This document shows positions 2,685 to 41,689 of a DNA stretch of 41,689 nucleotides, piece by piece (position 1 is the first letter of the stretch; the number at the start of each line of letters is the position of its first letter). Position numbers and translations under genes: made by a program. The stretch lies in IMG/VR virus record IMGVR_UViG_3300045988_150364, one strand, 5' to 3'. The stretch is from a virus. The notes beneath the pieces were generated by a model, which had not been told where the DNA came from, ran no database searches, and saw nothing but the letters and a program-made list of their open reading frames with translations.

Positions 2685-2697
2685 AAGGAGGGGTACA

Positions 2698-2904: not shown

Positions 2905-2939
2905 ACCTAAACAAACAGCGGTGAAAAAGGAGCGTAACA

Positions 2940-3671: not shown

Positions 3672-3682
3672 GAGGTTGAATT

Positions 3683-4052: not shown

Positions 4053-4295
4053 ATGGATAAATTTGATGATTTAGTATATTCGCTTCGGTATGAAGCAGAG
4101 GCTATTCTAGAGAATCTGAAGGAAATGGATGATCTGGATGGTGATGAAGCTAAAGTCAGTACATTGCTGAAATGGATCAAAAGTAGTGCAAATAGTATTG
4201 AAAATAAAATTGAAGATTATCAACCTAACCAGGGAATAACAACAGCTGAATTACGTAGCAAGATGATACTAAGCTATCCGGGGAGGGCATTATGA
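4053..4295 (+). CDS. Hypothetical acidic protein
   Basis: 80 aa, GGAGGA RBS, early operon. Confidence 0.5.
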   Translation: MDKFDDLVYSLRYEAEAILENLKEMDDLDGDEAKVSTLLKWIKSSANSIENKIEDYQPNQGITTAELRSKMILSYPGRAL

Positions 4296-8044: not shown

Positions 8045-8242
8045 ATGAATTGCGATATATGCCATAAGGATACAACGGCGGGTAGTCACGTAAACAGAGG
8101 TCGATATTTTGAGGTGCATATTTGCCCGAGCTGCTTGATGTGGTCAGATGATACACGGGCCGTGAAGGCACGGGAGATATTTAATAACTTTAAGAATTTG
8201 AGACTTTTGGAAGATATTAGTATAAGTAGCGAGCAAGAGTGA
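8045..8242 (+). CDS. Small zinc-ribbon protein
   Basis: 65 aa, CDIC...CPSC motifs. Confidence 0.45.
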   Translation: MNCDICHKDTTAGSHVNRGRYFEVHICPSCLMWSDDTRAVKAREIFNNFKNLRLLEDISISSEQE

Positions 8243-8247
8243 GGACA

Positions 8248-8784
8248 ATGAAAATGTTATCGCTATTTAGCGGGGTAGGTATGATTGACCTTGCTGCCAG
8301 CTGGGCGGGAATAGAAACAGTGGCTTTTTGTGAAATCGAGGAATACCCGCAAAAAATATTGCAAAGGAGGTTTCCGGGTGTCCCAATTTACAGAGATATC
8401 AGAGAACTCACGGCAGAAAAACTTAAAGCCGATGGAATATCCAAGATCGATATTATCAGTGGAGGATTTCCCTGCCAAGACGTTAGCACAGCAGGTAAAA
8501 GAACTGGTTTCGTTGATAGTGAAGGGAACGTTACCCGCTCCGGTCTTTGGGGAGAGTATGCCCGGCTTATTTGCGAGCTTAAACCAAGATGGGTTGTGGC
8601 TGAAAACGTGGCAGGGTTACTGTCAATCTCTGCTGCCGGGATTCGTGGAGGAGGATTCGGAACTGTACTCCGAGACCTGGACGAAATGGGGTATCGTGTT
8701 GGATGGTCATGCTATGGAGCTTCCGATGTTGGAGCGCCACATAAACGAGAGCGAGTGTTTATTGTGGCATACTTCGGACTGTAG
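8248..8784 (+). CDS. DNA (cytosine-5)-methyltransferase, N-terminal catalytic part (motifs I-VIII)
   Basis: Motifs LFSGVGM (I), GGFPCQDVS (IV, PC motif), ENV (VI), GAPHKRERVFIVA (VIII); GAGGA RBS. The reading frame stops at 8784, before the target-recognition domain. Confidence 0.85.
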   Translation: MKMLSLFSGVGMIDLAASWAGIETVAFCEIEEYPQKILQRRFPGVPIYRDIRELTAEKLKADGISKIDIISGGFPCQDVSTAGKRTGFVDSEGNVTRSGLWGEYARLICELKPRWVVAENVAGLLSISAAGIRGGGFGTVLRDLDEMGYRVGWSCYGASDVGAPHKRERVFIVAYFGL

Positions 8785-8785
8785 C

Positions 8786-9331
8786 GATCGACGCAGTCCT
8801 AAAAGCAAACAGCAAGGAGTAAATAATCAGGTAAAGGCATATTGGCGAACTCCGCAGTCGCATAATGGTGCACAAGGGCCTAAATCTAAGATGTTTTATG
8901 AAAAGTGTTTAAAAACTGGTCAGTCAGCAATAACACTCGTAGACCAAGTGAAAAACTGGCCAATACCTGCCGCTAGAGATAGTAAAGGAAGTAATTCTGC
9001 AAAACATTTATCAACGGGACATCATATAAATCAGTTGGCAAACAAGGTGAAACTGAATAAAACAGAAGGACAATTAAATGCCGATTGGGTTGAGCTACTA
9101 ATGGGATTGCCTATAGGCTGGACTGACATCAATGTAGCAAAAGAGGATATTGAAAGTTGGCAGGGCTGGCCTGCTGCAATAAATGTAGAGCAATACGCAT
9201 ATGAACCGCCAAGAGTAATAGTTGGGCAAAAAAACAGGGCGAAACGACTAAAGGCGTTAGGTAATGGTTGTGTGCCGCAGCAGGTATATCTTGTGTTGGC
9301 GGCAATTGTGGAGGTAGAAAATGAAGCGTGA
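8786..9331 (+). CDS. DNA (cytosine-5)-methyltransferase C-terminal part (TRD, NWPIPAARDSKG, ELLMGLPIGWTD, LGNGCVPQ = motifs IX/X) in the +1 frame relative to the N-terminal part
   Basis: The frame is open from 8330 but only becomes MTase-like after about 8790, and no RBS/ATG sits at the junction. This is a frameshifted or split MTase. Confidence 0.6.
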   Translation, partial: DRRSPKSKQQGVNNQVKAYWRTPQSHNGAQGPKSKMFYEKCLKTGQSAITLVDQVKNWPIPAARDSKGSNSAKHLSTGHHINQLANKVKLNKTEGQLNADWVELLMGLPIGWTDINVAKEDIESWQGWPAAINVEQYAYEPPRVIVGQKNRAKRLKALGNGCVPQQVYLVLAAIVEVENEA

Positions 9332-13623: not shown

Positions 13624-13691
13624 AATAGTATTATAAGTAAGTAGGCTTACAACAAGCTTGGTGAAACGTTCAAGCTTAGCGCTTGGACATT

Positions 13692-13764
13692 ACCCGTGTA
13701 GCTCAGATGGCAAGAGCGATTGACTTTTAATCATTTGTCGCAGGTTCGAGTCCTGCCACGGGTA
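13692..13764 (+). tRNA. tRNA-Lys (anticodon TTT at 13726-13728)
   Basis: Acceptor ACCCGTG/CACGGGT, D-arm GCTC-AGATGGCAA-GAGC, T-arm GCAGG-TTCGAGT-CCTGC. The anticodon stem has one T-T mismatch; no CCA is encoded. Confidence 0.6.
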
Positions 13765-13869
13765 GTTTGGCATAGATGGGGAACACCTATCCACGCTTAA
13801 AGGCGCGTGTGCTGGACAGGTAATCTTCCAGCTGCCGCCCTGCCGTTGGGGTAATACAGCGGCAATAAT

Positions 13870-13961
13870 GGAGCAGTACTCAAACGGCTAAGAGAGCAGT
13901 CTTGAAAACTGATAGGGCGTAGGGATACGCTGTGTGGGTTCGAATCCTACCTGCTCCGCCA
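13870..13961 (+). tRNA. tRNA-Ser (anticodon TGA), type II with long variable arm
   Basis: Acceptor GGAGCAG/CTGCTCC plus G plus CCA; anticodon loop CTTGAAA; variable hairpin GCGTA-GGGA-TACGC; T-arm GTGGG-TTCGAAT-CCTAC; 92 nt. Confidence 0.7.
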
Positions 13962-13964
13962 TAC

Positions 13965-14053
13965 GGAAGGTTGGCGTAATCGGTAACGCAGCGCCCTGCT
14001 AAGGCGTCAGTCGAGCAATCGGCTTACAAGTTCAAGTCTTGTACCTTCCGCCA
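13965..14053 (+). tRNA. tRNA-Ser (anticodon GCT), type II
   Basis: Acceptor GGAAGGT/ACCTTCC plus G plus CCA; D-arm GCGT..ACGC; anticodon stem GCGCC/GGCGT with loop CTGCTAA; T-arm ACAAG-TTCAAGT-CTTGT; 89 nt. Confidence 0.7.
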
Positions 14054-25407: not shown

Positions 25408-26529
25408 GTGAGCGTAACAACTACGGCAACAAAAATAAGCTATGAGTTTAAACCTGATACCTCATATTCTCTGCCATTTGAATATCAGAGTGCAGATGAC
25501 GTGAAGGTCAGCTATGAAGACGATAAGGGCAGCGAAGTGCTTTTGAATTATGGCACGGATTATACTGTAGAAAACCTTATTGTTACTGTGTCCGCAAGTT
25601 TACCTGAAGGTACTGTTTTAAACTTTTACCGTAATACGGATATAGTACAGCCAACAGTATTTCCGCCGCAGGTGCTGACACAGGCATATGAGACTGCGAT
25701 AGATCGAAATACGATGTGTATTCAGGAAGTTAAAACAGATTTCGGCGAACTTCGTGAAGAGGTTGAAGACTTTGAGAAAAAAACAAATGAAGAGATTGAC
25801 CGCTTCGAATCTGAGGTTACTACTGAAATTGAAAACTTTGAAAAAGAAACGACTGAAAGAATTGAAAAGTTTGAAGAAAATGCCGAGAAAGTAATCGAGC
25901 AGGCGCAGGCGAGTGCAGAATCTGCAAAGAAGTCTGAAACGGCAGCAGCAGAAAGTGCAGAATCTGCAAAAAAAGATGCAGAGAAAGCAGAAGATGCAGC
26001 TGACCGTGCAGAAGATATTTTACTACGTTTTGAGAGCGGAACTATAACAAAAGAGTTTACTGCGACAGATGACAGATGGACTGAAAACAACGGCATGTGG
26101 CGCCTTACAATGGCAATGGGTAACAGCAGGCTTATAGGCGTTTACAAGGAAGTCAAGAAGCCTCAGTATGAAATGGTACTAACCGGCGTTTATATGGACG
26201 CTGAAAATGTGATTATCGAAGTTCCTGAAAAGTTTGCAGGCATCGTTATACTGGCGTCGCTGACAAAAAAGACTGGTGATAAGGTCTATGTCAAAAACTT
26301 TACGGAGGAAGATTTTGCAGAGGTTGGCAGTGATTTCGTACTAACCATATCCGCTGAGGAACACCAGGCAGGAAACAGTCCGGTCATTGTCAGCTTAACA
26401 CAAATAATTGATGGAGTTAGTTATCCTTACTATGCTAATGCCGGAGTAGATAATAACGGTAACGTTGTTATAAATGTGAGCAAAGCGTTCACAGGGAAAA
26501 TAATATTGGATGGAGGTTACTTAGAATGA
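25408..26529 (+). CDS. Tail fibre protein with T7 gp17-type N-terminal adaptor domain
   Basis: 373 aa. ISYEFKPDTSYSLPFEYQSADDVKVSY...LNYGTDYTV...LTQAYETAIDRNTMCIQEV aligns with the T7 gp17 N-terminus (TYQLDGSNRDFNIPFEY...INTDYRF...LRAYDLNVAQIQTMHVAEE). A Glu/Ala-rich coiled coil follows, then a domain containing EKFAGIVIL. Confidence 0.8.
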   Translation: MSVTTTATKISYEFKPDTSYSLPFEYQSADDVKVSYEDDKGSEVLLNYGTDYTVENLIVTVSASLPEGTVLNFYRNTDIVQPTVFPPQVLTQAYETAIDRNTMCIQEVKTDFGELREEVEDFEKKTNEEIDRFESEVTTEIENFEKETTERIEKFEENAEKVIEQAQASAESAKKSETAAAESAESAKKDAEKAEDAADRAEDILLRFESGTITKEFTATDDRWTENNGMWRLTMAMGNSRLIGVYKEVKKPQYEMVLTGVYMDAENVIIEVPEKFAGIVILASLTKKTGDKVYVKNFTEEDFAEVGSDFVLTISAEEHQAGNSPVIVSLTQIIDGVSYPYYANAGVDNNGNVVINVSKAFTGKIILDGGYLE

Positions 26530-27362
26530 GTGTAGAAAAAATTGTCACTGGAACTTTAGCAGAGAGAGACGCTAAGATTAATGCTAATTTTGAAGCGTTG
26601 GATACCGACAAGCTCGGTAAGACCGAAACTGCCGCTGACAGTAGCAAATTAGGTGGCGTAGCGGCTGCTAGTTATGCAAAGACTGCTGATATGAACAGTG
26701 CTATTGAGGCTGCAAAGTCGGCAGTAAAAGATGAGCTGATTGACGGAGCGCCTGGTGCTTACGATACGTTAAAAGAAATTGCCGATTACATTGCAGAAGA
26801 TAAAACGGGTGCGGCAGCTATGAATGAAGCTATAGCAGGTAAACTCGGTAAAACTGAAACTGCAGCTGCTGCCGCTAAACTAACAACTTCTGCCGGCAGT
26901 ACAACACAGCCTGTATATTTTGATGATGGTGTTCCTAAAGCTTGTACTTATGAACTTAACAAAACAGTACCAGCTGATGCTGTATTTACGGATACTGTAT
27001 ATACACTGCCTACTGCATCTGCTAGTGTTCTAGGCGGCGTAAAAACTGGTTCAAATATCACTAACAGCAGCGGGACAATCAGTATTACTAAAGCTAATGT
27101 TGTGGCGGCATTAGGGTATACTCCGCCTACTTCTGCTACTACAGTAACCAAAACTGAATTTACAGCAAGTAGCGCCAACTGGGGAACATTATCAAACGGC
27201 TACTATCCATTTACCTTAGCAGCTTCAGGAAAACACTTCCTTGGTATGTATCGTACTAATAGCAGTACCTATGAGAGTGTTATGGTAGACGTAGTTGAAA
27301 GTAGCAGTAATATCATAATCCAAAGTACGGAGAAGTTTGCCGGCTTTGTTCTGACGATTTGA
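26526..27362 (+). CDS. Tail fibre protein 2 (phage fibre repeat type)
   Basis: 278 aa; repeated KLGKTETAA / KTADMNSAI motifs. Its C-terminal domain (...TEKFAGFVLTI) is paralogous to the EKFAGIVIL domain of the first fibre. Confidence 0.7.
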   Translation: MSVEKIVTGTLAERDAKINANFEALDTDKLGKTETAADSSKLGGVAAASYAKTADMNSAIEAAKSAVKDELIDGAPGAYDTLKEIADYIAEDKTGAAAMNEAIAGKLGKTETAAAAAKLTTSAGSTTQPVYFDDGVPKACTYELNKTVPADAVFTDTVYTLPTASASVLGGVKTGSNITNSSGTISITKANVVAALGYTPPTSATTVTKTEFTASSANWGTLSNGYYPFTLAASGKHFLGMYRTNSSTYESVMVDVVESSSNIIIQSTEKFAGFVLTI

Positions 27363-27373
27363 GGTGAGGAAAA

Positions 27374-27949
27374 ATGGGACTTGAAGGATTAGTAACAGTT
27401 GAAAAAATAAGAGCCGCAATTAACGCATCACTGTCAGGACTGAGTAATTCTGATGCAACGATTACTATAACAAAGAACGATAATACAACGAGTACTATTA
27501 CTATTAACAATGTAGCTAATGCGACTACCGCAACTACAGCAACAAAACTCGGGAGCAGCACGGTAGGCAGTGGCGTCAAGGCAATTTATCTTAATGCTGG
27601 TACAGCAACTGAGAGTAACAGTACTGTAGGTGACAGTACCACGCCGGTGTACTTAAACGCTGGCGCTATAACAGCTTGTGCTGCAAGTATTGGTTCCGGT
27701 TGGACTGTTTCAACAGGATCGGCAGGTTGGGCTCGGGAAAATTCCACTGGATTTACCATCCAGTGGGGCGATCAAACTACATTCCCCCGTACTTTTACAA
27801 CAGCGTTTCAGGTTGTAATGCAAACTAATAACAATAAAGGTGAACAATTATATAAGAACCAAGTAACTGTAACAGCTATCTCTAACAATGGTTTTACCAT
27901 TGGGTCGCCCGGACAAGGACAAAGATATGTAGCGTTTGGTATAAGTTAA
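27374..27949 (+). CDS. Tail fibre / receptor-binding tip protein whose last 60 codons lie inside an invertible segment
   Basis: 191 aa, Thr/Asn/Ser/Gly-rich. Codons 122-131 (ENSTGFTIQW) are encoded exactly by the 30-bp left inverted repeat. Confidence 0.7.
   Translation: MGLEGLVTVEKIRAAINASLSGLSNSDATITITKNDNTTSTITINNVANATTATTATKLGSSTVGSGVKAIYLNAGTATESNSTVGDSTTPVYLNAGAITACAASIGSGWTVSTGSAGWARENSTGFTIQWGDQTTFPRTFTTAFQVVMQTNNNKGEQLYKNQVTVTAISNNGFTIGSPGQGQRYVAFGIS
27737..27766. repeat. IR-L: GAAAATTCCACTGGATTTACCATCCAGTGG, perfect inverted repeat of 28162-28191. Contains the internal palindrome CCACTGGAT-TTACC-ATCCAGTGG.
   Basis: The exact 30-bp reverse complement is found 395 bp downstream. Confidence 0.9.
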
Positions 27950-28161
27950 GTCAAGCCACAAGCATAAAGTCTACAAGGCTGTGAACCACTCCAGCGATCA
28001 TCATTGTAACCATTACATAGGGTAAAACTAATACTGGTATTACTAACACTTGTAACAAATGTTTCGCAGTTGCTGGTTGCTATAACATTCGCATAATACA
28101 AAGTTGAAAAGCTTCTGGGGAAATTAATACTTCTATATGTAGCATCAGTATTGCCTACCCA
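27946..28161 (-). other. Alternative tail-fibre C-terminal cassette (71 codons plus stop, no start codon), read on the minus strand in frame with IR-R
   Basis: Minus-strand translation continuing from the IR reads ENSTGFTIQW|WVGNTDATYRSINFPRSFSTLYYANVIATSNCETFVTSVSNTSISFTLCNGYNDDRWSGSQPCRLYACGLT*. This is homologous but diverged from the current C-terminus (FPRTF/FPRSF, VTVTAISNNGFTI/VTSVSNTSISFTL). It converges tail-to-tail on the fibre stop codon. Confidence 0.7.
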
Positions 28162-28191
28162 CCACTGGATGGTAAATCCAGTGGAATTTTC
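28162..28191. repeat. IR-R: CCACTGGATGGTAAATCCAGTGGAATTTTC (reverse complement of IR-L)
   Basis: Read in the sequence; identity ends exactly at the 30-bp boundary on both sides. Confidence 0.9.
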
Positions 28192-28210
28192 TATAAGGAG
28201 AAATAAAAGT

Positions 28211-28810
28211 ATGACCTATTTAATAAAATTTGACGAAAATGGCAGACGCAGTGACACTTACGTCGCCGAAGAAAAAACACAGGAACAAGTTACAGAACTG
28301 CTTGAAAAAGGGTTTGTATTAATTACAGAGAAAGATTATCAATTATTGATCGGCAATGTGGACGGTAAAGAATATATACGCAACGCTGACGGTACTTATA
28401 GTGAATATGAATTGCCTGAGCCTACATTGGAAGAACTTAAAGCTATCAAGCTGTCAGAGGTAGACGCTTGGACTGAAAGTAAAATCACAGGCGGTTTTAT
28501 ATCTGAATGCACTGGTGAGATAGTAAGATATGATAGCGATAAGGACACGCAGCTTACGATGCAGGGGATTGCGCTGAACGTAAGCACTGAACGATTTAAA
28601 AATGAATATCCTGACGGCTGTCCGGTACGGGGGTATAAAGATGGTGAAACTGTTAAAACAATACAGTATCTTAATGCTTCGCAGGTATATACATGGTGTG
28701 CTGACTTATCGTCCCACGTGGGCGCTTGCAAACAACAAGGTTGGAGTAAGCAGGCAGAGGTAGCCGCAGCATCAAGCAAAGAGGAATTGGACGCTATTAC
28801 CTTAGACTAG
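28211..28810 (+). CDS. Hypothetical protein downstream of the invertible segment (possible tail-fibre assembly/chaperone; not a recombinase)
   Basis: Start set at the Met of MTYLIKFDENG with an AAGGAGAAAT RBS (199 aa). The track ORF start at 28151 would read through IR-R. No serine or tyrosine recombinase motifs. Confidence 0.45.
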   Translation: MTYLIKFDENGRRSDTYVAEEKTQEQVTELLEKGFVLITEKDYQLLIGNVDGKEYIRNADGTYSEYELPEPTLEELKAIKLSEVDAWTESKITGGFISECTGEIVRYDSDKDTQLTMQGIALNVSTERFKNEYPDGCPVRGYKDGETVKTIQYLNASQVYTWCADLSSHVGACKQQGWSKQAEVAAASSKEELDAITLD

Positions 28811-28819
28811 AGGTGTGAA

Positions 28820-29185
28820 ATGGATTTACAAGCAAATGTATTTATGGTGATAAGTCTGTTGGTACAGAGCGGATTTATCGGTGTAGCTTGGAAGATATAT
28901 TCAAACTACAAAAAGCAGGTAGAGGAACGAGGTAAGAAAACAGAAGCCCTTCATAATGCGACACGCAGTCTGCTCAGGACAGAGATCATAGGAATTTATC
29001 ATAAGTCTGAGGAAGATGGATTTATACCGCTATATAACTTGGAAAATATAACTGATATGTATAGCTGTTATAAAGCACTTGGTGGTAATGGAGCAATCAC
29101 AGAGCTGTACCATAAAGCATTACAGCTGCCGCAAAAATCTCCTGATAATGAACGTGGGGAGTGTAATAAATGCTTGAGAAAATAA
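28820..29185 (+). CDS. Putative holin-like membrane protein (one N-terminal TM helix)
   Basis: 121 aa; the N-terminal TM helix (VFMVISLLVQSGFIGVAW) is followed by a charged cytoplasmic tail; first gene of the lysis cluster. Confidence 0.35.
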   Translation: MDLQANVFMVISLLVQSGFIGVAWKIYSNYKKQVEERGKKTEALHNATRSLLRTEIIGIYHKSEEDGFIPLYNLENITDMYSCYKALGGNGAITELYHKALQLPQKSPDNERGECNKCLRK

Positions 29186-29508
29186 AAAACTTAATAGTAG
29201 GTGCTAGAAATAAAGTAGCCTCAATGTCGCCAAAAATAATGGCTGTCATTGTAGGCTATTTTATTGCAGTCGTTTTGCTGGTACTGACCTATTACGCTGC
29301 ATGGATGTATATGTGGTTATGGCTAGATAAGATTATTATGTCTGACCTGCTGGCGCTGATAAGAGAGATCACAGGTCCGGCTATGGTTGCATTTGTGACT
29401 TTCGTAGCTACGAGTTTAGTAGATAAAGACGGGGACGGTGTCCCTGATAAATTTGAACAGGAGGCAGAGAATAATGGGGGCAGTAACAAAAAGAATCACT
29501 TTAGATGA
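29170..29508 (+). CDS. Holin (2-3 TM)
   Basis: 112 aa; TM segments IMAVIVGYFIAVVLLVLTYYAAWMYMWLWL and AMVAFVTFVATSLV with a charged C-terminus; immediately upstream of, and overlapping, the endolysin gene. Confidence 0.5.
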   Translation: MLEKIKNLIVGARNKVASMSPKIMAVIVGYFIAVVLLVLTYYAAWMYMWLWLDKIIMSDLLALIREITGPAMVAFVTFVATSLVDKDGDGVPDKFEQEAENNGGSNKKNHFR

Positions 29509-30289: not shown

Positions 30290-30742
30290 ATGAAAAAATA
30301 TATAATCATCGGTATTGTATTATTGTGGTCGTTATTATTGCTTGTATCACTGCCTGCTATATGTTCGGCAGAGGAACTTCCGGAAACAATAACGATGTCC
30401 AGGGAACAGTTCAACGAATTGCAGACGATAATAAACAGACAGGAAAATCTGTTGATAGGGCTGTCGAACACGTTGGAACTGCAGCAGATGAACTCGAACG
30501 AGCTGAAGAAGCTAATCGAAGAGCAGCGTTTATCTTATCAGAAGATAAGGGGCGAGCTAACGAGTGCGCAGGAATCATTGTCGAACTCCAAAAAAACAAT
30601 AGCAGAGCAAAACAAATCCTTAGAGACGTTGAGCGAACAAATAAAGAAAGAACAATCCAAAAGTGAATTGAAACAAAAACAGAAGGCTTTATGGGGATTT
30701 ATCGGAGGGGTATTAGTTGGGACAATAGCAGCGAGCAGGTGA
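30290..30742 (+). CDS. Spanin-like lysis protein (u-spanin architecture: N-terminal signal/lipobox-like segment, periplasmic coiled coil, C-terminal TM)
   Basis: 150 aa. The N-terminal signal/anchor segment (IIIGIVLLWSLLLLVSLPAICSAEE) is followed by a long coiled coil; the C-terminal segment ALWGFIGGVLVGTIAASR is hydrophobic. Located in the lysis cluster. The overlapping 30277-30666 frame is rejected. Confidence 0.5.
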   Translation: MKKYIIIGIVLLWSLLLLVSLPAICSAEELPETITMSREQFNELQTIINRQENLLIGLSNTLELQQMNSNELKKLIEEQRLSYQKIRGELTSAQESLSNSKKTIAEQNKSLETLSEQIKKEQSKSELKQKQKALWGFIGGVLVGTIAASR

Positions 30743-30747
30743 TTATT

Positions 30748-31014
30748 ATGGAAGCTTGCAGATCGTGGACAAAGAGCTGGTTGCTGACTTCCGGGAAGGC
30801 AGAGTTTCGCATGATCGTAGACGAGGCGAAGCTGACCCCAAGACAGCAAGAAATAATTGAACTGAAATTTATAGACGATCTTAAAAATTATCAGATTGCT
30901 ATGAGAATAAATACGTCGGTACAGACGGTAGAGCGTGACTTGATGCAGGCGTATAATTCCATTTACAGAATACTTGGAGGTATGGCTGATGACAAAAATA
31001 ATAGTAAGAAGTAA
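30748..31014 (+). CDS. Sigma-70 region-4-like HTH small regulator
   Basis: Start set at MEACRSW with an AGGTGA RBS; LTPRQQEIIELKFIDDLKNYQIAMRINTSVQTVERDLMQAYNSI matches the sigma region 4 / ECF-type HTH pattern. Confidence 0.55.
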   Translation: MEACRSWTKSWLLTSGKAEFRMIVDEAKLTPRQQEIIELKFIDDLKNYQIAMRINTSVQTVERDLMQAYNSIYRILGGMADDKNNSKK

Positions 31015-32860
31015 CCAGTCTTCTGTGAACCCTACTGCTAGCGGACAACGTGTAGGTGTAGAATATAACGATGCCGGAAACAGAGCAGCGGCTAATATGT
31101 ATGGTACTATCGGAAAAGCATTCAATGCAGGACTGGATGTTTTGAATAAAGAGCAGGAGCAAAATGAAGCACTGCGTGTGGCAAAAGCTACGAACGAATT
31201 TAATCTTGAACTTGGCAAACTGAAAGTTGACTACATGCAAAAGCGTCAGGGTAGTAATTCAGTTGGTGTGATAAACGACTTTTTAAAAGATGCAAATGTA
31301 TTGTCAGAACGTATTTATGCAAAATCTGGTATCCGCTATAAATTGGGCGAACAGGCCTTTAAACGCATAACAGATAATACCCTTGCTACTGACGGCGTAC
31401 AGCTCTATAAATTCCAGGAACAGGAAACACAAAAATATAAACAAAATGTCTTTGATCAATCTGCAGATAATTTGATAAACGGTGTAATCGATGGCGAGAG
31501 CTTGCTTGAGAATTATCCGATAATGGAAGGCTTGTATAGAAGTATGTTCCCAGATCTACCAAAAGAACAGTACAAACAAGTGGAAACAGAGATGGCAAAC
31601 CGTTATGCAGCTATATTGGTAAATGATGCGGTAAACCAGAACAACTATACTCTTGCCGAAGATAGGCTCAGCTATTTCCGGAACAAAATATCTCCAGAGG
31701 TGCGTACAAAGCTGGAAGCAGCTTTATATAGTGAACAGGAATATGTTGAAAATAGTGAGTTATCAAAACAACTTGTTGATATTCCACCTGATGAATGGGA
31801 TGCGTATCTTGAAAACTATGCTAAGGGAAAAGGAAACATAACCGAAGGTAAGTATACTTTTAACCCCGGTGTAAGCTTTGAAGGAATGCAGGAAAACGCA
31901 GTACAGGGTATAAAAGGCATAACAGGTATACTTAATCAATATGGCATAGATGATGTATATATAACAAGTACAAAGAATGACTACAGCGGCCATGCCCCGG
32001 GGAGCGCTCATTATGAAGGTGTAGGAGTCGATGTTGACAGTACTAAGTTAGGTGAATTGGACGAATCCAGCCGTAATATACTGGCTGATAGGATGGAACG
32101 TGCCTACCCAGGGCTAAAAGTTTTGAATGAGTACGATGATCCGTCTGACTATGCAACAGCTGGGCACTTCCATCTTGACTTCACAAACTACAAAGGCGAA
32201 AGCAGGCTTGGCGCGAGTGGACTGAGTGCTAGAAGAAGAGATCAGATAAAGGCTAAAGCTTCAGCTATATTGAGGGATAAAGATCGTGCACTAAAAGAAC
32301 AGCGACAAAAATACAAAAATGATTTAGCGTTAAAAATAAATACTGCTCCTACGGAAGCTGAAGCTGTTGATATGATAAATAATTCTGATTTGGATAGTGA
32401 AGAAAAAATTAAATTGATAGCAGCTCAAAGACGGGTTAGAAACCCGTCAAATTATATGACTACTGCTGATGCTGAAATGTGGAAATATGTAAACAGTGGA
32501 AATTATAATAAAGATTTAACTTTAATGGAAGAATATAATAATCGTGTTATGGATAGTACTGATGAAATAACTCCTGCTCAGCAAAGAATGTACAATAGAG
32601 CTGCTGTGAAGTTAAATGATTATTATGCATGGGCTAATCATAACTATCAGACCAGAGATTATAAACAGGACTATAGCAATAACCAAGAGTACGAACAAAT
32701 GCTTTCAGATATTGAATATATGGCAGAACGAGGTGCTTCTAAAAACGAAATAACGAAATATGTGCAGGACATAGCTAAAGAAAATGGCTTTGATGAACAA
32801 TATATTCTTAACACTATTATGTGGGATAAATTAGGTAAAATTGAAGGCGGTGTGAAATAA
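30989..32860 (+). CDS. Large virion-associated protein with M15/LAS-type peptidoglycan peptidase motif (candidate ejection protein / structural lysin)
   Basis: 623 aa (ATG with GGAGGT RBS). SAHYEGVGVDVD and GHFHLDF match the S.H..G.A.D ... H.H LAS/peptidase_M15 active-site pattern. Confidence 0.55.
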   Translation: MTKIIVRSNQSSVNPTASGQRVGVEYNDAGNRAAANMYGTIGKAFNAGLDVLNKEQEQNEALRVAKATNEFNLELGKLKVDYMQKRQGSNSVGVINDFLKDANVLSERIYAKSGIRYKLGEQAFKRITDNTLATDGVQLYKFQEQETQKYKQNVFDQSADNLINGVIDGESLLENYPIMEGLYRSMFPDLPKEQYKQVETEMANRYAAILVNDAVNQNNYTLAEDRLSYFRNKISPEVRTKLEAALYSEQEYVENSELSKQLVDIPPDEWDAYLENYAKGKGNITEGKYTFNPGVSFEGMQENAVQGIKGITGILNQYGIDDVYITSTKNDYSGHAPGSAHYEGVGVDVDSTKLGELDESSRNILADRMERAYPGLKVLNEYDDPSDYATAGHFHLDFTNYKGESRLGASGLSARRRDQIKAKASAILRDKDRALKEQRQKYKNDLALKINTAPTEAEAVDMINNSDLDSEEKIKLIAAQRRVRNPSNYMTTADAEMWKYVNSGNYNKDLTLMEEYNNRVMDSTDEITPAQQRMYNRAAVKLNDYYAWANHNYQTRDYKQDYSNNQEYEQMLSDIEYMAERGASKNEITKYVQDIAKENGFDEQYILNTIMWDKLGKIEGGVK

Positions 32861-35800
32861 TGTCGACAGCGAGAGAAAAAATGCTGGCAAAGTTTGCAAA
32901 TAAACCGGTTCTTGAAAATAAAGGATTCTTTCAAAGAGCTGCGGAACGTGTAACTGAGAATTATTTAAATAGTCAGGGAGAAGTTGAACCGTCATTAGAA
33001 GAACAGATGGAAGATGTAACTGCAGAAGAAAGAGGTAAATTTTTTGCGGATGCAGGAACTCGGATAGGAGAGGCAATAGAAAATTTTGCTACAGGAGCTG
33101 TACAAGGCGCACAAGAGGTCGGTAGGCAAGCTAATCGGCTTGCTGCAGCTAATCCACTTGCTTTGACTGGTACACCTATGCAAGAAGGATATACAAATGC
33201 GCCAGTACCTACACAAACAAAAGAACAGGAGAAAGCAGGGGAGCTATATAAGAAGGCTACAGGCAATTTCGCGGAAGAAACTATAGCGCCTGCTGCAATG
33301 GCTACAGCACTGTTAGCCCCAAGTAGTTTTGCTGCACCTGTACTTTCTCCATTTGTTTTGTCCAGTTTACAAACCAATATAAATAAAAGCGGTGCTAAAG
33401 GCGTACTTGATACTGCAACTGAATTTTTACCCGGTGCAGGTGCTTATCAAGTGGCAACACAGGAAGGAGCAACGAAATATGCAAGAGAACGTCCAGGAGC
33501 CTTTGCAGTTGATATAGTAGCCAGTTTATCACCTGATGTGCTGGGATTCAAAGCTGGGAAACACGCTGTAAAAGATAGCGTTCCTAATTACAGGATGTCA
33601 ATGTCCTCTTTGTTAGGGGAAACCGAAAGAAGAACGGCATATACTGCATCAAAAATTTTGCATAATATATATAACAATAGTAAAGAAAATCTACCTGAAT
33701 TTAAAATGCAAGAGGTTACTGTAGAGCCGTTAAAGGATACTCGTAAAGTCCAAGGTATGTTAAGCGAAAATCAAAGTCTGCCAGAGGTAAAATTAGTTAT
33801 TGATGAGCAAAACTTTGCAAAAAATGTTGATGCTATTGTTCAAAATACCTATAAAGGCGACAGTGCTGTCCCTGTTATGTCTACTCCATTAGCTTTAGAA
33901 CTGGCTGGTGCTGAAATATTACCTATTGAAATCAGTCCTAAAAACTTAAAAAAAATAACCATAGGCAAACATAATATTGCTAATGGTGAAGGTATGACTC
34001 CAGAGATTGTTAAACAAATACCACGAGCCTTAACTGATCCAATTATGATTTTTGATGCTGAGTATAGCGGCAAAAAAGGCGAAAAGAGAATAATTGCAGT
34101 ATTAGATTTAAAGGATGAAAATGATACAACGATCGTAACTCCATTTGAATTAAAACAGAGAAATAATAAAAAAGGATACGAAATCAATGAAATGCTTAGT
34201 GCTTTTGGTAAGGAGGATAAAGTTACTAAGCAACAGGCTACTAAATGGTATGAAGATAATGTATTAGCTGGCAGATTGCGGTATATAAACAAAGAAAAAA
34301 CTGCCGAGTGGCTCAAATCCGCAAGGGACGAATACCCAATGTTGGAAAGAGCAGTCGACAGTTCTCTTACTTTAAATATACCTACTGAGAAGGATTTTGT
34401 CAACCTGAAAAATAGAAAGACAGAACAATATTCTTTAGGGAATAAGTCAACTGGAGAAGAAGCTACTTTCGGTCGATCTGGAAAAACAAAAACATGGGGA
34501 GAAATTAAACCGGTTACTAGAAAAGAGGTTGAAGCTGCTTTTAATGCAATCGTTCCAGTTCGTGTCGGAGGTGTTGATGAAAAATATAAAGGGTTGTTTA
34601 AAGTTGGCCCAGAAGTTGTAAGAAGTAGGGCTTTTGCTGATTATGCTACATACTCACATGAAATTGGACATTTTTTAGATAAAAAATTAGAAGTCAAAGG
34701 TAGCGATGCAGAACTTATTGCTGGAGCGGAGAATGTATGGGGGAATAATAGCGTATTTAGAGAATATAATAATGCTGAAAAACGTGCAGAGGGTATTGCT
34801 GAATTTACAAGGCAAATACTTGCTGACCCAGAAATGGCAGAAAGGAATTTCCCTAAATATTACGAGAATTTTATTCAGGCTTTAAGGAACTCTAACAATA
34901 AAGACTTAGCTAAAAAGTTTGATAGGCTTGCTGATGTAATGCGTCGTTATTCTCTGCAAAGCGATCAGGCAAGGGGAAGAGCTTCTATATCTTTTGCTGA
35001 TGATTTAAATTTAAAGAGCATTACCCAAAAGGCAGAAGATGTTTTGGCGGACGCATATAAGTATGCGGTTGATGATAAAGACCCTATAAATAAATTTGTT
35101 GAAGCTGTTATTGACAAGACTGGTAAAGAGTTACCATATGAGGATAATCCTTATTTGCTTGCAAGAAGTGCTGCAAGCAGTGCAAAATCAAGGTCAACAA
35201 TGCTTTTGGATGATAAGGGTAAGCCGACAGATGTTATTGAGGCTTTAAATAAAGTCTATAATAACAAATTAAAGTATGCGGTTACATTGCAGGATATTTT
35301 AAAAGAAGTGGATAGTGTAAAGTTTTCTAAAGATTATCTGCGGAGTAATGGATATAAAGATAATCGGCAGGCATTTTCTACATACTTAGTAGCTAAACGA
35401 CAGCTTGAGTTACAAAGCATTCATAAAGAATATAATGGATCTATGGAGAAGAATATTGCGGCAAGTATTGTAGAAAATGCTCCTAAAGAGTTTATTAGTG
35501 CTTCAGAAAAGGTTCATCAACATTTTGATAATGTGCTGTCAATTTTAGAAGATAGTGGAATTATTAGTAAGGAACAGCATAATACATTAGCAGAAAAGTA
35601 TAAAAATTATGTCCCTATGTATAGAGATAGAAGAATGGAGGATGTGAAAATACCTGGTTATAAACCAAAGTCAGGACTTGCGAATGTTACAAACCCAATA
35701 AAAGGGTTAAATGAATATGGCATTAATAGAAATGTTATTGATCCGTTAGATAGTTTAATTGCCTATACACAGAAGTCTGTGGATGCTGCAGAACGAAATA

Positions 35801-37443
35801 AAGTAGGGCTTGCGTTATCAAGACTAAAAGATGTAGAAGGCATTGGTAGTTATTTAGAGGAGCGACCAGACTTAGAAGGTAAAGGATCTCCAGAGAATTT
35901 TGTGTTTACTGTATGGGAAAATGGTGAAAAGAAATCATATCAAACAGCGCCAGAATTATATGATGCAATGGTTAATTTAAGTTTGCCAACATTTAATACT
36001 GTTGAAAAAGTATTTATGACACCAGCCGAAGTTATGCGTGCTGGTGCAACAGGAACACCTGCTTTTGGTCTTTTTAACCTTGCCAGAGATACTTTGACAT
36101 CTGTTTTGTATTCTAATAATACAACTATTCCTGTCATCGAACCGATTGGTAATACGATGTATGGCCTTTGGGAAGCATTGCGAAGCAATTACCATAAAAA
36201 AAGCAGCCTATATAGGGAGTTTGAAATTGCTGGTGTTCCGATGACGACACGTATTTCTACAGAAAGATCTAGTTTAAAATGGCAAAAATTACAAGAAGCT
36301 CCAGGTGTAAAATTGGGAACAATGCTTTACAAGGGGTTCCAGAAATTAAATCAGTCGCTAGAAGAAGCGGCCAGGTTAGGCGAATTTGCTGCAGGACGCA
36401 GAAAAGGAAAAAGTATTCAGGAAGCTGGATTGGAAGCGAAAGAAATAACTACAGACTTTAGCAGAGGTGGGAGTTTAGCGAGAAAATATAATAGATATGT
36501 TCCGTTCTTTAATGCGGCCATTCAGGGTACTGACAGGCTCATTAGAGAGGTTAAGGCTCATCCTGTGCGTTTAGGTGCCAGAGTAGGGACAGCAATAATA
36601 TTGCCGGCTTTATTTGAATGGGTGGCATTTCATGATGAAGATTGGTATCAGGATGTTCCTCAGGACATTCGAGATAATTATTTTATTGCAAGAATTGGAG
36701 ATGAAATAGTAAAAACTCCATTACCACAGGAAGTTGCGTTTTTAGCAGGCGGATTTAAAAGAAGTCTTAGTAAGTTGCTTGATGATAATCCGGATGCAAT
36801 GAATAAATGGGCTGCAAATACACTTGATACAATGCTGCCGGATTATATACCTGCTTTCATGAAGCCGTTTATAGAATGGCAGTCATCTTATAATTTCTTT
36901 ACGGAAAAGAATATCATACCTGTAAGTTTGCAGAATTTACCAGATAAAGAACAATATGATATTTATACAAGCATGACTGCAATAAAACTTGGTCAGGCTT
37001 TGAATGTCTCTCCGAAGAAAATTGATAACTTGATCCAGAATGTAGGTGCTACCGGGGCTGTTACTTTAAATGCTATGATTGGTGATTATGCTTTGGACCG
37101 TGAAAATGAGTTGCCCGCTAAATATATGAATGAACAGCCTATTGTTGGGCGGTTCGGTTATACGCCTGGTAAACGAAGCCAGAATATAGAGGATTTCTAT
37201 CAGCTTTATAGTGATACCAGTAAAGAGTTTAATGCCTATGGTAAGTTAGGTAAAAATGCTAAAAACTGGAATGGCTTAAAAAATGCAATGAAAAAAGTGC
37301 GTGCGCTTAATAAAAAACGGCAGACAATACTTAATAATCCTAAGTTGTCTGCTCAGGAGAAACGGGCGCAAATGGATAAGTACCAACAGGACATTATAAG
37401 GATTGCTACTATGGCAAACGAAAAGTACAGTTTAAAAGAATAA
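32860..37443 (+). CDS. Giant (1527 aa) probable internal/ejected polyvalent protein with zincin-like HExxH motif
   Basis: Start overlaps the previous stop (TAATG). Contains YSHEIGHFLD (HExxH), an Ala-rich N-terminal segment, and multiple domains; gp16-like size and position. Precise domain identities not verified. Confidence 0.5.
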   Translation: MSTAREKMLAKFANKPVLENKGFFQRAAERVTENYLNSQGEVEPSLEEQMEDVTAEERGKFFADAGTRIGEAIENFATGAVQGAQEVGRQANRLAAANPLALTGTPMQEGYTNAPVPTQTKEQEKAGELYKKATGNFAEETIAPAAMATALLAPSSFAAPVLSPFVLSSLQTNINKSGAKGVLDTATEFLPGAGAYQVATQEGATKYARERPGAFAVDIVASLSPDVLGFKAGKHAVKDSVPNYRMSMSSLLGETERRTAYTASKILHNIYNNSKENLPEFKMQEVTVEPLKDTRKVQGMLSENQSLPEVKLVIDEQNFAKNVDAIVQNTYKGDSAVPVMSTPLALELAGAEILPIEISPKNLKKITIGKHNIANGEGMTPEIVKQIPRALTDPIMIFDAEYSGKKGEKRIIAVLDLKDENDTTIVTPFELKQRNNKKGYEINEMLSAFGKEDKVTKQQATKWYEDNVLAGRLRYINKEKTAEWLKSARDEYPMLERAVDSSLTLNIPTEKDFVNLKNRKTEQYSLGNKSTGEEATFGRSGKTKTWGEIKPVTRKEVEAAFNAIVPVRVGGVDEKYKGLFKVGPEVVRSRAFADYATYSHEIGHFLDKKLEVKGSDAELIAGAENVWGNNSVFREYNNAEKRAEGIAEFTRQILADPEMAERNFPKYYENFIQALRNSNNKDLAKKFDRLADVMRRYSLQSDQARGRASISFADDLNLKSITQKAEDVLADAYKYAVDDKDPINKFVEAVIDKTGKELPYEDNPYLLARSAASSAKSRSTMLLDDKGKPTDVIEALNKVYNNKLKYAVTLQDILKEVDSVKFSKDYLRSNGYKDNRQAFSTYLVAKRQLELQSIHKEYNGSMEKNIAASIVENAPKEFISASEKVHQHFDNVLSILEDSGIISKEQHNTLAEKYKNYVPMYRDRRMEDVKIPGYKPKSGLANVTNPIKGLNEYGINRNVIDPLDSLIAYTQKSVDAAERNKVGLALSRLKDVEGIGSYLEERPDLEGKGSPENFVFTVWENGEKKSYQTAPELYDAMVNLSLPTFNTVEKVFMTPAEVMRAGATGTPAFGLFNLARDTLTSVLYSNNTTIPVIEPIGNTMYGLWEALRSNYHKKSSLYREFEIAGVPMTTRISTERSSLKWQKLQEAPGVKLGTMLYKGFQKLNQSLEEAARLGEFAAGRRKGKSIQEAGLEAKEITTDFSRGGSLARKYNRYVPFFNAAIQGTDRLIREVKAHPVRLGARVGTAIILPALFEWVAFHDEDWYQDVPQDIRDNYFIARIGDEIVKTPLPQEVAFLAGGFKRSLSKLLDDNPDAMNKWAANTLDTMLPDYIPAFMKPFIEWQSSYNFFTEKNIIPVSLQNLPDKEQYDIYTSMTAIKLGQALNVSPKKIDNLIQNVGATGAVTLNAMIGDYALDRENELPAKYMNEQPIVGRFGYTPGKRSQNIEDFYQLYSDTSKEFNAYGKLGKNAKNWNGLKNAMKKVRALNKKRQTILNNPKLSAQEKRAQMDKYQQDIIRIATMANEKYSLKE

Positions 37444-41507: not shown

Positions 41508-41529
41508 TGGTCGCAGTTTTGGTCGCACT
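41508..41529. promoter_or_regulatory. Second copy of the 22-bp TGGTCGCAGTTTTGGTCGCACT motif (candidate arm-type integrase site, attR arm)
   Basis: Identical to 95-116 and in the same orientation. Confidence 0.45.
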
Positions 41530-41600
41530 TTAGTGTTTTTTAATGCCATTTCACGACTTCTTACGGCACTATCAAGAATATGATTCACAAAAAACAAAAA

Positions 41601-41642
41601 CCGTCAAAGCCCTTGAAAACTAGGCTTTGACGGTACTTTTTT
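41601..41642 (+). terminator. Terminator hairpin CCGTCAAAGCC-loop-GGCTTTGACGG flanked by A-run and T-run (bidirectional), abutting the tRNA 3' end at attR
   Basis: 11-bp perfect stem; AAAAACAAAAA upstream, TACTTTTTT downstream. Confidence 0.6.
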
Positions 41643-41644
41643 GC

Positions 41645-41689
41645 TGGTACGCCCGAGTGGAATCGAACCACCGCACACGGCTCCGGAGG
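41645..41689 (-). repeat. attR core: 45-bp direct repeat (tRNA 3' end on the minus strand, continuing into the tRNA body beyond the window)
   Basis: Identical to 1-45; the window ends inside the tRNA. Confidence 0.8.

Follow-up and report, generated by a model that had tools for sequence, protein, structure and literature searches.

A recurrently inverted tail-fiber tip cassette with no recombinase gene alongside it in prophages of Phascolarctobacterium faecium

Introduction

In the Mu G, P1 C and p15B Min systems, the serine invertases Gin, Cin and Min invert a segment that encodes C-terminal receptor-binding parts of a tail fiber, while the N-terminal part of the fiber remains constant and the repeats encode the junction. 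Alternative host range is the outcome. Segments of the Mu/P1 type are approximately 3 kb long, and their cassettes carry chaperone genes. The gix/hix sites measure 26 bp and have a 12-2-12 arrangement, with two 12-bp inverted half-sites around a 2-bp core.

Other invertible segments have no recombinase gene next to them. Mpi of B. fragilis and RecV of C. difficile are global recombinases that flip invertons in trans (also PMC6109161); in those systems the enzyme has been identified, and the targets are host loci, mostly promoters. Bifidobacterium prophages carry the Rin shufflon, in which the gene for an armless tyrosine invertase lies beside several cassettes and the rix sites are asymmetric and only 11 bp long (Mavrich et al., 2018, PMC6109161). 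In two further Bifidobacterium prophages integrated at tRNA-Met (689b-1 and Bb423phi2), about 500 bp spanning a small gene plus the adjacent gene's 3' end are inverted with no flanking recombinase, and the authors proposed an invertase acting in trans, "not previously reported in phage genomes" (PMC6109161). An invertible phage locus without a flanking recombinase already has, in this Bifidobacterium case, a published precedent (PMC6109161).

Here, we describe an invertible tail-fiber locus in a virus sequence of 41,689 nucleotides (IMG/VR record IMGVR_UViG_3300045988_150364), referred to below as the window. It shares the fiber architecture and the outcome of the Mu, P1 and p15B systems, but the segment measures only 395 bp, the cassettes carry no chaperone genes, a single DUF4376 gene lies outside the segment, and the prophage has neither an adjacent nor a resident serine invertase; moreover, the phage is podovirus-like and its host belongs to the Negativicutes. 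As with Rin, the C-terminus of a receptor-binding protein is exchanged by inversion in a prophage of a gut bacterium, and a non-serine mechanism is proposed. In contrast to Rin, the present locus has two cassettes and lacks an adjacent recombinase, its perfect repeats are 30 bp long and contain a palindromic core, and the several cassettes with short repeats in both orientations that characterize the Rci/R64 and Rin shufflons are absent. The 689b-1/Bb423phi2 case comprises two genomes, an 8-bp repeat and genes without known function, whereas the present repeats are palindromic and 30 bp long, the exchanged parts are receptor-binding domains, and recurrence, selection and spread over three phage backbones are documented. 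Like the Mpi and RecV invertons, the segment has no adjacent recombinase and one type of site is reused at several places (here, several prophages); however, the inverted DNA is phage coding sequence.

Results

Anatomy of the invertible locus

The features of the window considered below are the following.

1 to 45, plus strand: attL, a 45-bp direct repeat that coincides with a tRNA gene's 3' end and is paired with attR at 41645-41689 (100% identity)
78 to 1196, minus strand: tyrosine integrase (lambda-type), 26.5 kb from the switch (PF00589, E=2e-23; phrog_1, E=2e-68)
27374 to 27736, plus strand: constant N-terminal part of the fiber ORF, residues 1-121; the N-terminal 131 residues are identical in proteins P0001 (G form) and P0014 (W form)
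27488 to 28557, no strand assigned: portable module common to an unrelated P2-like myovirus prophage (blastn of the window against locus L029)
27737 to 27766, plus strand: left arm (IRL), in frame, encoding ENSTGFTIQW; palindromic core CCACTGGAT-TTACC-ATCCAGTGG at 27744-27766
27767 to 27949, plus strand: G tip cassette, 60 codons and stop, fused to the constant part and therefore the expressed form; most of a gp53/R-pyocin-like foot domain
27946 to 28161, minus strand: W tip cassette, 71 codons and stop, silent here and without a start codon of its own; the expressed tip in proteins P0014-P0018
28162 to 28191, minus strand: right arm (IRR), reverse-complementary to IRL at every position, with its outer part in non-coding DNA and 19 nt ahead of the next gene
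28211 to 28810, plus strand: DUF4376 fiber-associated gene (PF14301, E=4.9e-9; phrog_1348 "tail fiber protein", E=3e-16)

The window is, as judged from its ends, one complete podovirus-like prophage of 41.7 kb, because the attL and attR repeats bound it on both sides. The two arms of the inverted repeat are 30 nt each, 100% complementary and spaced by 395 nt; no other inverted repeat found across the window is perfect or as long. The tail-fiber ORF (27374-27949, plus strand, 191 aa) reaches residue 122 at 27737, and the left arm is read exactly in frame as residues 122-131. On the minus strand, reading from 28191 gives the same ENSTGFTIQW, after which 71 aa (WVGNTDATYRSINFPRSF...) precede a stop. 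The G and W cassettes are homologous and convergent, and they have in common the 4-nt sequence TTAA (27946-27949), which provides a TAA stop on both strands. The first-pass annotation had described perfect, in-frame 30-bp repeats 395 bp apart, two C-termini arranged tail to tail with a startless one on the minus strand, and a constant N-terminal part with alternative inverted tips; re-derivation of the coordinates and of the ENSTGFTIQW frame led to the same architecture. Each locus contained exactly two cassettes and two arms, and none contained more.

The segment is found in both orientations

Among 57 copies of the module in P. faecium prophages from public assemblies, G was the expressed tip in 22 and W in 35. 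Both forms occurred with both arm types (type 1: 20 G and 25 W; type 2: 2 G and 10 W). IMG/VR contigs comprised 6 G and 10 W, with several segments identical at 395/395 positions in each orientation. The conclusions on orientation rest on contigs that by their names come from MEGAHIT (k119-k141) or SPAdes-style assemblies, on IMG/VR contigs and on the NCBI genome. Logan contigs are reportedly assembled at k=31, and their orientation across a 30-bp repeat may be unreliable. Locus L024, which possibly starts at a contig end, was left out of the evidence.

It had been anticipated that inversion would fuse residues 1-131 to the other tip, and exactly such a protein exists: P0014 (202 aa) consists of residues 1-131 of the window's fiber followed by the minus-strand tip. 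Precise inversions were also seen in the DNA. The left flanks of loci L001, L002 and L003 are identical to the window over 915/915, 802/802 and 697/697 positions, and the segment between the arms is reverse-complemented at 394/395; the right flank of L001 matches the window at 2998/3000 positions. Three further loci, L074 (W), L075 (G) and L076 (W), differ in their flanks by 1/3000 and 7-10/5000 mismatches, and the myovirus pair L023/L029 represents an exact inversion over 479/479 positions. A neighbor-joining tree of the flanks only, built from 18 unique sequences, implied at least five orientation changes, compared with a mean of 5.8 under random assignment (P=0.35). Literature searches returned nothing on this locus in Phascolarctobacterium, and a DNA search of a phage collection with positions 26500-29200 gave no match.

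Both cassettes appear to be maintained. Stop codons were absent from both tips in all 57 copies, and pN/pS was 0.09-0.18 across the two cassettes (0.16-0.18 for W); on the basis of these ratios, both cassettes are under purifying selection. Disruption of the minus-strand cassette in relatives, which had been put forward as one observation that would speak against a switch, was not encountered in these copies (57/57 intact). These data also bear on the possibility that the locus is a fossil or the product of a one-off rearrangement, that is, the leftover of an ancient duplication or inversion whose switch is defunct. The missing invertase agrees with this explanation, as does the single SNP (T to I) that unites the three contigs with the window's exact haplotype in W form, which is compatible with one event in that sub-lineage. 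Nevertheless, it is contradicted by recurrent inversion together with intact, selected cassettes: the independent changes on the flank tree are joined by further near-identical opposite pairs, identical segments are known in both orientations, pN/pS is well below 1, and a genuinely locked copy does decay (see below). We therefore consider this explanation highly improbable.

The W form of the window's haplotype was represented by 3 short contigs only, versus 158 collection blocks for the G form. The contig of L066 breaks off precisely at IRL's inner edge, and those of L002 and L003 stop at IRR or shortly before it. Contig breaks at the arms suggest that the minor orientation may be present within samples at an assembly-visible frequency. 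Taken as a whole, the locus is very probably an active, reversible host-range switch.

The exchanged tips resemble R-pyocin and gp53 foot domains

A profile built from seven tips matched the fiber foot of the R1 pyocin (6cxb, E=1.8e-4; 6cl5, 7e-4). In Foldseek, the top five matches were pyocin R1/R2 fibers and AP22 gp53, with a probability of 1.00. Against the Pfam family PF21882 (Gp53-like_C), the sister tips P0023 and P0058 scored above the cutoff, and the G and W forms alone scored below it. According to these profile and fold comparisons, the tips are receptor-binding foot domains of the R-pyocin/gp53 type.

The DUF4376 gene always follows IRR and lies outside the invertible segment. The first-pass annotation had reported that 28211-28810 lacks recombinase motifs, and the assignment to DUF4376 and phrog_1348 agrees with this. 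The AlphaFold model of its product (pLDDT 83) had no fold match in the PDB, and its BFVD matches were DUF4376 proteins of many phages. The protein was considered as a cryptic recombinase and rejected, given a confident model without a recombinase fold and a family spread over many phages. The product is probably an assembly protein or a chaperone/cap protein and, being encoded outside the segment, would serve both tips.

Search for a recombinase

The integrase was the only recombinase found in the window, using Pfam and PHROG scans of approximately 40 ORFs and six-frame tblastn searches with Hin, gamma-delta resolvase and XerD as probes. No PF00239 serine recombinase was present among these ORFs, and the Hin and gamma-delta resolvase probes were likewise blank. 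No tyrosine invertase was found beside the cassettes, the distant integrase being the sole PF00589 protein in the window. The earlier statement that the prophage carries no invertase and a single recombinase thus holds for the complete, att-bounded element. Gene tables extending up to 10 kb on either side of the podovirus and myovirus modules listed no recombinase family except in L072, where the integrase of a neighboring tandem prophage lies about 5.4 kb from the module. In loci fetched by DNA pattern, which were searched with the tblastn probes alone, no recombinase was detected except in L048. This XerD-like match, a 409-aa tyrosine recombinase on a contig of 3x coverage, was judged to be an assembly chimera; the DUF4376 gene there jumps abruptly into unrelated sequence. 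A collection of species-representative genomes returned nothing for the fiber protein or the palindromic core. A diversity-generating retroelement was also rejected: the scanned ORFs included no reverse-transcriptase family, the repeats are inverted and perfect, and no adenine-specific variation was seen. The locus is accordingly an orphan inverton, a repeat-bounded segment that occurs in both orientations with no recombinase in cis.

As the only recombinase of the element, the integrase could double as an invertase that uses the repeats as secondary core-type sites. An 8-7-8 reading of the repeat core (see below) is compatible with a tyrosine recombinase, and the 8-mer AGTGGAAT is common to the att core and the repeat, with an estimated random chance of about 0.04. 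However, the half-sites are arranged differently in the att core, which lies in the tRNA T-arm, and in the repeat core, and the presumed arm-type sites TGGTCGCA (95-114 and 41508-41527) are paired only at the att ends and absent near the module. Neither the att core nor these sites resemble the repeat, and the att core is likewise absent from its vicinity. The module also flips in a P2-like myovirus and is located in a third backbone, neither of which shares other DNA with this prophage, and tblastn with the integrase gave no related sequence in any of the fetched loci, which do not extend to the other phages' integrase regions. A second role for the integrase is improbable.

Palindromic core and evolution of the repeat arms

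The internal 9-5-9 palindrome that had been noticed in each repeat is real and was found at the two arms only, against a chance expectation of 0.02 matches at up to 3 mismatches. Shuffling produced palindrome arms of at least 9 nt in about 0.1% of cases, and synonymous recoding of the peptide, weighted by codon usage, did so in 0.14%. The core is 23 bp long, an odd length that leaves no central dinucleotide, and can alternatively be read as 8-7-8, namely CCACTGGA-TTTACCA-TCCAGTGG. The likeness to gix/hix sites suggested in the first-pass annotation is retained for the palindromic core as such, but not for the geometry, which is an odd 9-5-9 or 8-7-8 and not the 12-2-12 of the gix/hix consensus; nor is there a serine recombinase nearby. 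Such a core would suit a site of the tyrosine-recombinase type at least as well as a gix/hix site.

When the arms were compared among loci, all 54 loci with matching arms were identical from AAAATTCC inward, and in 54 of 58 paired loci the two arms matched from end to end without a difference. Both boundaries of the repeat, inner and outer, were the same in all lineages, and the outer 7 nt of IRR were conserved although they are never translatable. Type 2 arms differ from type 1 at positions 7, 15 and 18 of 30, with all three differences in both arms. The two arm-to-arm mismatches observed are both inside the 7-bp center. One of them, a C-to-T change in the central spacer, is carried by L041, L042 and L057, the only loci with a decayed silent cassette, so that this mismatch coincides with a locked cassette. 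Two candidates were set aside: L051 (type 1 left arm and type 2 right arm on a 1.9-kb contig) is possibly an assembly hybrid of two co-occurring lineages, and L047, where an unrelated contig carries a lone core-like palindrome, was taken to match a degenerate pattern by chance.

Concerted evolution of the arms extends along their entire length. Gene conversion, a homology-driven process acting on the repeats, is the process indicated, because a reciprocal crossover limited to a 7-bp overlap cannot homogenize positions outside that overlap. Inversion itself might then be driven by homology, with RecA or the phage's exonuclease and NinB-like functions acting on the 30-bp repeats during replication and no site-specific enzyme involved; rare inversions would be amplified since each new lysogen inherits the orientation of the adsorbing particle. 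The full-length identity of the arms and the covariation at three scattered positions are the signature expected of gene conversion, and the coincidence of one arm mismatch with the decayed, locked cassette fits as well. The window has genes for an exonuclease (4292-4981) and for a protein with weak similarity to NinB (4978-5529), no invertase was found in it or in the sequence examined around the other copies, and the pattern between samples does not by itself need a high rate. On the other hand, in E. coli about 30 bp is near the minimum length for efficient RecA-dependent recombination, so that rates would be very low, and the contig breaks exactly at the arms suggest a minor orientation visible to assembly within samples. 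Homology also leaves the palindrome (P of about 0.001) unexplained, and does not account for why the repeat has failed to grow longer into the non-coding flank of IRR or why its boundaries are identical in three backbones. We regard purely homology-driven inversion as unlikely, although it deserves serious consideration.

The module is shared by unrelated phages

When the window was compared by blastn with L029, the pieces of the module were 94.6%, 100% and 98% identical, and no other DNA was common to the two. The shared pieces were the C-terminal part of the constant fiber region, both arms, the W cassette and the 5' part of the DUF4376 gene. Nucleotide diversity dips across the same interval (27488-28557). 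The podovirus, the P2-like myovirus and a third phage backbone all have the same core, and the sequence examined around the copies of the module in these three backbones yielded no credible recombinase gene. The portable unit of about 1 kb contains the fiber junction, two tips, two 30-bp sites that include the palindrome, and the 5' part of the fiber-associated gene.

Discussion

We propose that the locus is an active tail-fiber tip switch whose enzyme is supplied in trans and acts site-specifically at the palindromic core, a reading to which we assign a probability of roughly 0.6. Reciprocal recombination between the arms would flip the 395-bp segment and fuse the other tip in frame, so that a piece of 60 or 71 residues completes the receptor-binding foot domain on constant residues 1-131, with ENSTGFTIQW, supplied by the repeats, as the common junction peptide. 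The crossover is envisaged as a conservative site-specific reaction at the 8-7-8 core with tyrosine-recombinase-like geometry, and the enzyme would come from the P. faecium host or from another resident element. From the sequence data, we lean slightly towards a trans-acting site-specific recombinase for this step. An enzyme acting in trans would account for one site serving three unrelated phage backbones. Another possibility is a recombinase-independent mechanism, which the site itself would program and which would depend on a hairpin or on short homology. Of the three outcomes left by the first-pass annotation, the fossil was rejected in view of at least five inversions and intact cassettes, and an enzyme in trans or an uncharacterized mechanism still stands.

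With the trans-acting switch as the preferred reading, the spread of the module can be considered. It is an even question whether a portable, enzyme-less switch of approximately 1 kb moves among unrelated phages of one host and outsources the receptor-switching enzyme to the host or a resident element.

Textbook fiber switches carry their own invertase, whereas this compact two-tip switch has none. Its activity in nature is clear, in prophages of a bacterium abundant in the human gut, and it is a mobile module common to phages of different morphotypes. The locked, decayed natural variant already marks the central spacer as critical. Because the site is short and defined and this variant points to the spacer, it offers an attractive handle both on the search for the recombinase and on efforts to engineer the host range of Negativicutes phages. 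Should the enzyme be host-encoded, phage host range would be set in part by a host function, a new kind of phage-host dependency, and the orphan invertons that are being catalogued in gut microbiomes would gain a concrete example open to testing.

Inverted repeats and alternative tips of the tail fiber

A repeat search identified two arms of 30 nt, 100% complementary and separated by 395 nt, and a whole-window scan revealed no other perfect inverted repeat of 30 nt in the window. The features of this locus were as follows:

27374-27949, plus strand: tail-fiber open reading frame, 191 aa
27737-27766, plus strand: left arm, encoding ENSTGFTIQW in frame from codon 122 onward
28162-28191, minus strand: right arm, exact reverse complement of the left arm, with the same ten residues read from 28191
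28211-28810: DUF4376 / phrog_1348 "tail fiber protein" gene, always next after the right arm

The perfect inverted repeat reported at 27737-28191 by the first-pass annotation was confirmed, and translation of the open reading frame agreed with its placement of the left arm at fiber residues 122-131. Past the left arm, the plus strand encodes 60 residues (tip G), and the minus strand, read from 28191, encodes 71 residues past the right arm (tip W), followed by a stop. The two C-termini converge tail to tail on one stop region, as had been described, and overlap in the tetranucleotide TTAA (27946-27949), which gives a TAA stop on either strand.

Each arm contains the palindrome CCACTGGAT-TTACC-ATCCAGTGG, which in the window is confined to the two arms. 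A palindrome with arms of at least 9 nt turned up in about 0.1% of shuffled versions of the 30-mer and, when the peptide was recoded synonymously with codon-usage weighting, in 0.14% of cases; therefore, coding constraints do not account for the palindrome. The 9-5-9 element had been compared with gix/hix; the palindrome itself stands, but the comparison was downgraded, as no gix/hix-type site is present.

Seven tip types (G, W, GNG, A, GNPS, and two non-invertible sister tips) align on TGxTxQW...FPRxF...AxG(I/V)S. Their profile matched the C-terminal foot domain of R1-type pyocin fibers (6cxb, E=1.8e-4; 6cl5, 7e-4) and AP22 gp53 (4mtm, E=0.015). The AlphaFold model of the window fiber protein was confident over about residues 110-191, and its five best Foldseek matches were R1/R2 pyocin fibers and AP22 gp53, with a probability of 1.00. 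The sister tips, represented by proteins P0023 and P0058, passed the Pfam cutoff for PF21882 (Gp53-like_C), which neither the G nor the W form reached by itself. The first strands of this foot domain are encoded within the repeat, and inversion therefore swaps out most of a receptor-binding domain.

Inversion of the segment in natural populations

The 395-bp segment is invertible. The expected inversion product, in which the constant 131 residues are fused to the other tip, exists in the protein database as P0014 (202 aa), which corresponds to window fiber residues 1-131 plus the minus-strand tip with one substitution. In the contigs coding for P0014 (L001, L002, and L003), the left flanks were identical to the window at 915/915, 802/802, and 697/697 positions, the right flank of L001 was identical at 2998/3000, and the segment was reverse-complemented relative to the window with a 394/395 match each. 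Scanning IMG/VR with the 30-mer yielded 18 contigs, 6 expressing G and 10 expressing W, and several contigs of each class carried a segment 395/395 identical to that of the window. Scanning metagenomes for the core brought in another 27 loci, and additional look-ups contributed others; the 395-bp module was then counted in 20 G and 25 W orientations with arm type 1, and in 2 G and 10 W with arm type 2, the variant of the repeat in another lineage. A neighbor-joining tree based solely on the flanking sequence (900 nt per side, 18 unique sequences) required at least five orientation changes, no fewer than with random assignment (mean 5.8, P=0.35). Three loci in a common chromosomal context, L074 (W), L075 (G), and L076 (W), had flank mismatches of 1/3000 and 7-10/5000.

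Orientation was read from arm-spanning k-mers when the word size exceeded the repeat. Logan contigs are assembled at k=31, and the 30-bp repeat may therefore be unresolved in them; conclusions were based on contigs with MEGAHIT (k119-k141) or SPAdes-style names, IMG/VR contigs, and an NCBI genome.

Two loci (L071 and L072) were found on one scaffold, 41.5 kb apart, and L038 and L070-L078 were tandem or composite prophages at a single chromosomal site. These carry a second fiber module in a shortened element after the MuF gene of the full prophage, so four 30-bp sites are possible on one chromosome. A 1,867-bp contig (L051) combined a type 1 left arm with a type 2 right arm, resulting in three arm mismatches, with both cassettes intact; either the two lineages have genuinely recombined here or the contig is a hybrid created by assembly.

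A module shared by three phage backbones

The same arms and W cassette were present in three backbones: the podovirus of the window, a P2-like myovirus prophage (baseplate J, gpI, gpU, and PAAR genes; fiber of 254 or 274 aa), and a third one (L056) with a 487-aa fiber and a third arm variant. The myovirus segment is 479 bp long and holds W and the GNG tip; L029-L032 express W; in L023 the GNG tip is expressed and the segment is the exact inverse (479/479), with flanking sequences 98-99.5% identical. Across phages, the partner of W was G, GNG, A, or GNPS. The DNA shared by podovirus and myovirus was limited to window positions 27488-28557, where identity was 94.6% for the last stretch of the constant part, 100% for the W cassette, and 98% for the 5' portion of the DUF4376 gene. 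Across arms and segment, nucleotide diversity was 0.03, versus 0.16-0.21 in the 900-nt flanks.

Prophage context

The window is exactly one prophage, and its host is Phascolarctobacterium faecium, based on the source names of homologues and on locus L073, an NCBI genome of that species. The features considered here were:

1-45 and 41645-41689: 45-bp att direct repeats bounding the prophage, identical to the 3' end of a tRNA gene
78-1196, minus strand: tyrosine integrase
8239-8784: methylase ORF 1, matching PF00145 positions 1-161
8330-9331: methylase ORF 2, matching the C-terminal part of a phage methyltransferase family

The late region resembles that of podoviruses (portal, GP7-type capsid protein, nozzle protein, and T7 gp14-like protein), with two fiber-like genes upstream of the switching one. 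The C5 cytosine DNA methylase at 8239-9331 is broken up into two ORFs that overlap in different reading frames, owing to a frameshift, pseudogene formation, or an error in sequencing. In the early region, ORF 7196-8035 contains a long 18-nt tandem-repeat array (7254-7865) encoding YdcK-type beta-solenoid repeats. Four 12-nt iteron-like direct repeats (AACACAAACTGATACACAACCTGT...) at 6107-6173 lie inside ORF 5817-6521, which weakly matches replication initiators (Phage_rep_O, RP-C), and may represent the origin of replication of the phage. Region 13691-14053 holds three tRNA genes (Lys-TTT, Ser-TGA, and Ser-GCT). After the lysis genes, 30691-37443 encodes, in order, a small Sigma70_r4-like protein, a 628-aa protein without a family match, and a 1527-aa polyvalent protein with MuF_C and LPD38, which exceeds 2,000 aa in relatives L006, L008, L036, L037, L070, L077, and L079.

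Candidate agents of inversion

The integrase had been called the only recombinase of the element, and this held: Pfam and PHROG scans of the approximately 40 window ORFs and a six-frame search with Hin, gamma-delta resolvase, and XerD probes found no second one. The downstream gene at 28211-28810, rightly described as lacking recombinase motifs, encodes the DUF4376 protein; its AlphaFold model was confident (pLDDT 83) and matched no solved fold, recombinase folds included, and its BFVD matches were DUF4376 proteins from podo-, sipho-, and myoviruses. Inversion by the integrase itself is very improbable, since the att core is the tRNA T-arm region, the arm-type sites flank the att ends only, and the module also flips in a phage sharing no other DNA with the window prophage. 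These sites are presumably the TGGTCGCA motifs paired just inside both prophage ends (regions 1-128 and 41508-41689); an isolated extra copy occurs at 10367.

Gene tables reaching up to 10 kb on either side of the module in podovirus and myovirus loci contained no recombinase families, except in L072, where the integrase of the neighboring tandem prophage lies about 5.4 kb away. Loci fetched by DNA pattern were searched by tblastn probes alone, with no recombinase match except in L048. In this 3x-coverage contig, the fiber module is joined to a tyrosine recombinase of 409 aa and to a tRNA-like stretch (124-1353, 2193-2630), and the DUF4376 gene shifts abruptly into unrelated sequence at the join; the contig is probably an assembly chimera, and this recombinase was dropped as a candidate.

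We infer, with a probability of about 0.55-0.6, that a site-specific recombinase supplied in trans would act on the arms and flip the segment. Favoring it are the palindromic core, boundaries identical in all lineages, the reuse of one site in three phages of one host, and the conservation of the right arm's outer 7 nt, which are never translatable. Both observed arm-to-arm mismatches are located within the central 7 bp, and one belongs to the locked loci. In addition, contigs end at the arms (L066 exactly at the left arm's inner edge, L002 and L003 at or just before the right arm), and the W form of the window's haplotype was found on short contigs only. The odd 9-5-9 (or 8-7-8) geometry would fit a tyrosine-recombinase core better than the 12-2-12 crossover site of serine invertases.

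Short-homology recombination between the arms is possible but unlikely. Counting for it, and against the site-specific enzyme, arm type 2 departs from type 1 at three positions over 12 nt, with all three changes present in both arms; such co-variation calls for gene conversion and would not follow from a crossover limited to a short overlap. The phage also codes for an exonuclease and a NinB-like protein; however, the palindromic core, fixed boundaries, and conserved outer 7 nt favor the site-specific enzyme.

Selection on both cassettes and locked loci

No stop codons were found in either cassette across 57 module copies, and pN/pS between the two arm lineages was 0.09-0.18 for G and 0.16-0.18 for W, regardless of which cassette is silent; therefore, both tips must be expressed often enough for selection. 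Among 58 paired loci, 54 had matching arms, with both cassettes open in 54/54; in L049, with perfect type 2 arms, the silent G cassette has an in-frame 42-nt (14-codon) deletion, leaving 46 instead of 60 residues. A disrupted silent cassette in relatives, which the first-pass annotation had regarded as evidence against a working switch, occurred only in arm-mismatched L041, L042, and L057, myovirus loci expressing a different tip. In these three loci, T replaces C in the central spacer of the left arm (TTTACT vs TTTACC), and the W cassette carries an internal deletion and a premature stop, so that, judged from these changes, they appear as a locked switch should. The intact copies elsewhere are thus not fossils, and a dead switch, the other option left by the annotation, is scarcely credible given repeated inversions, selection on both cassettes, and decay confined to locked loci. 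Between its tail genes, the P2-like myovirus of L041 also carries NA37 (nucleoid-associated) and RelA_SpoT genes (1626-3701), possible moron or defense cargo.

Relation to known systems

The proposed Mu G / P1 C / p15B Min architecture was retained as the same functional idea, but membership in that family fails, as the window has no serine invertase, no gix/hix-type site, and no chaperones carried by the cassettes. Unlike Rin- or Rci-type shufflons, it has no adjacent tyrosine invertase, just two cassettes, and long perfect arms. The nearest precedent is a second inverted locus in two Bifidobacterium prophages, a ~500-bp segment that has an 8-bp repeat and lacks a recombinase at its flanks, for which a trans-supplied invertase was proposed (Mavrich et al. 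2018, PMC6109161). Surveys of intragenic invertons left most enzymes unassigned (bioRxiv 10.1101/2023.03.11.532203), and literature searches found no description of the Phascolarctobacterium module.

Overall, the first-pass interpretation was supported, and the element is an active, compact, portable tail-fiber tip switch without its own invertase. Fiber inversion is classical biology; with its missing enzyme, its transfer between phage types, and its clean natural genetics, this module poses a specific question that is directly testable.
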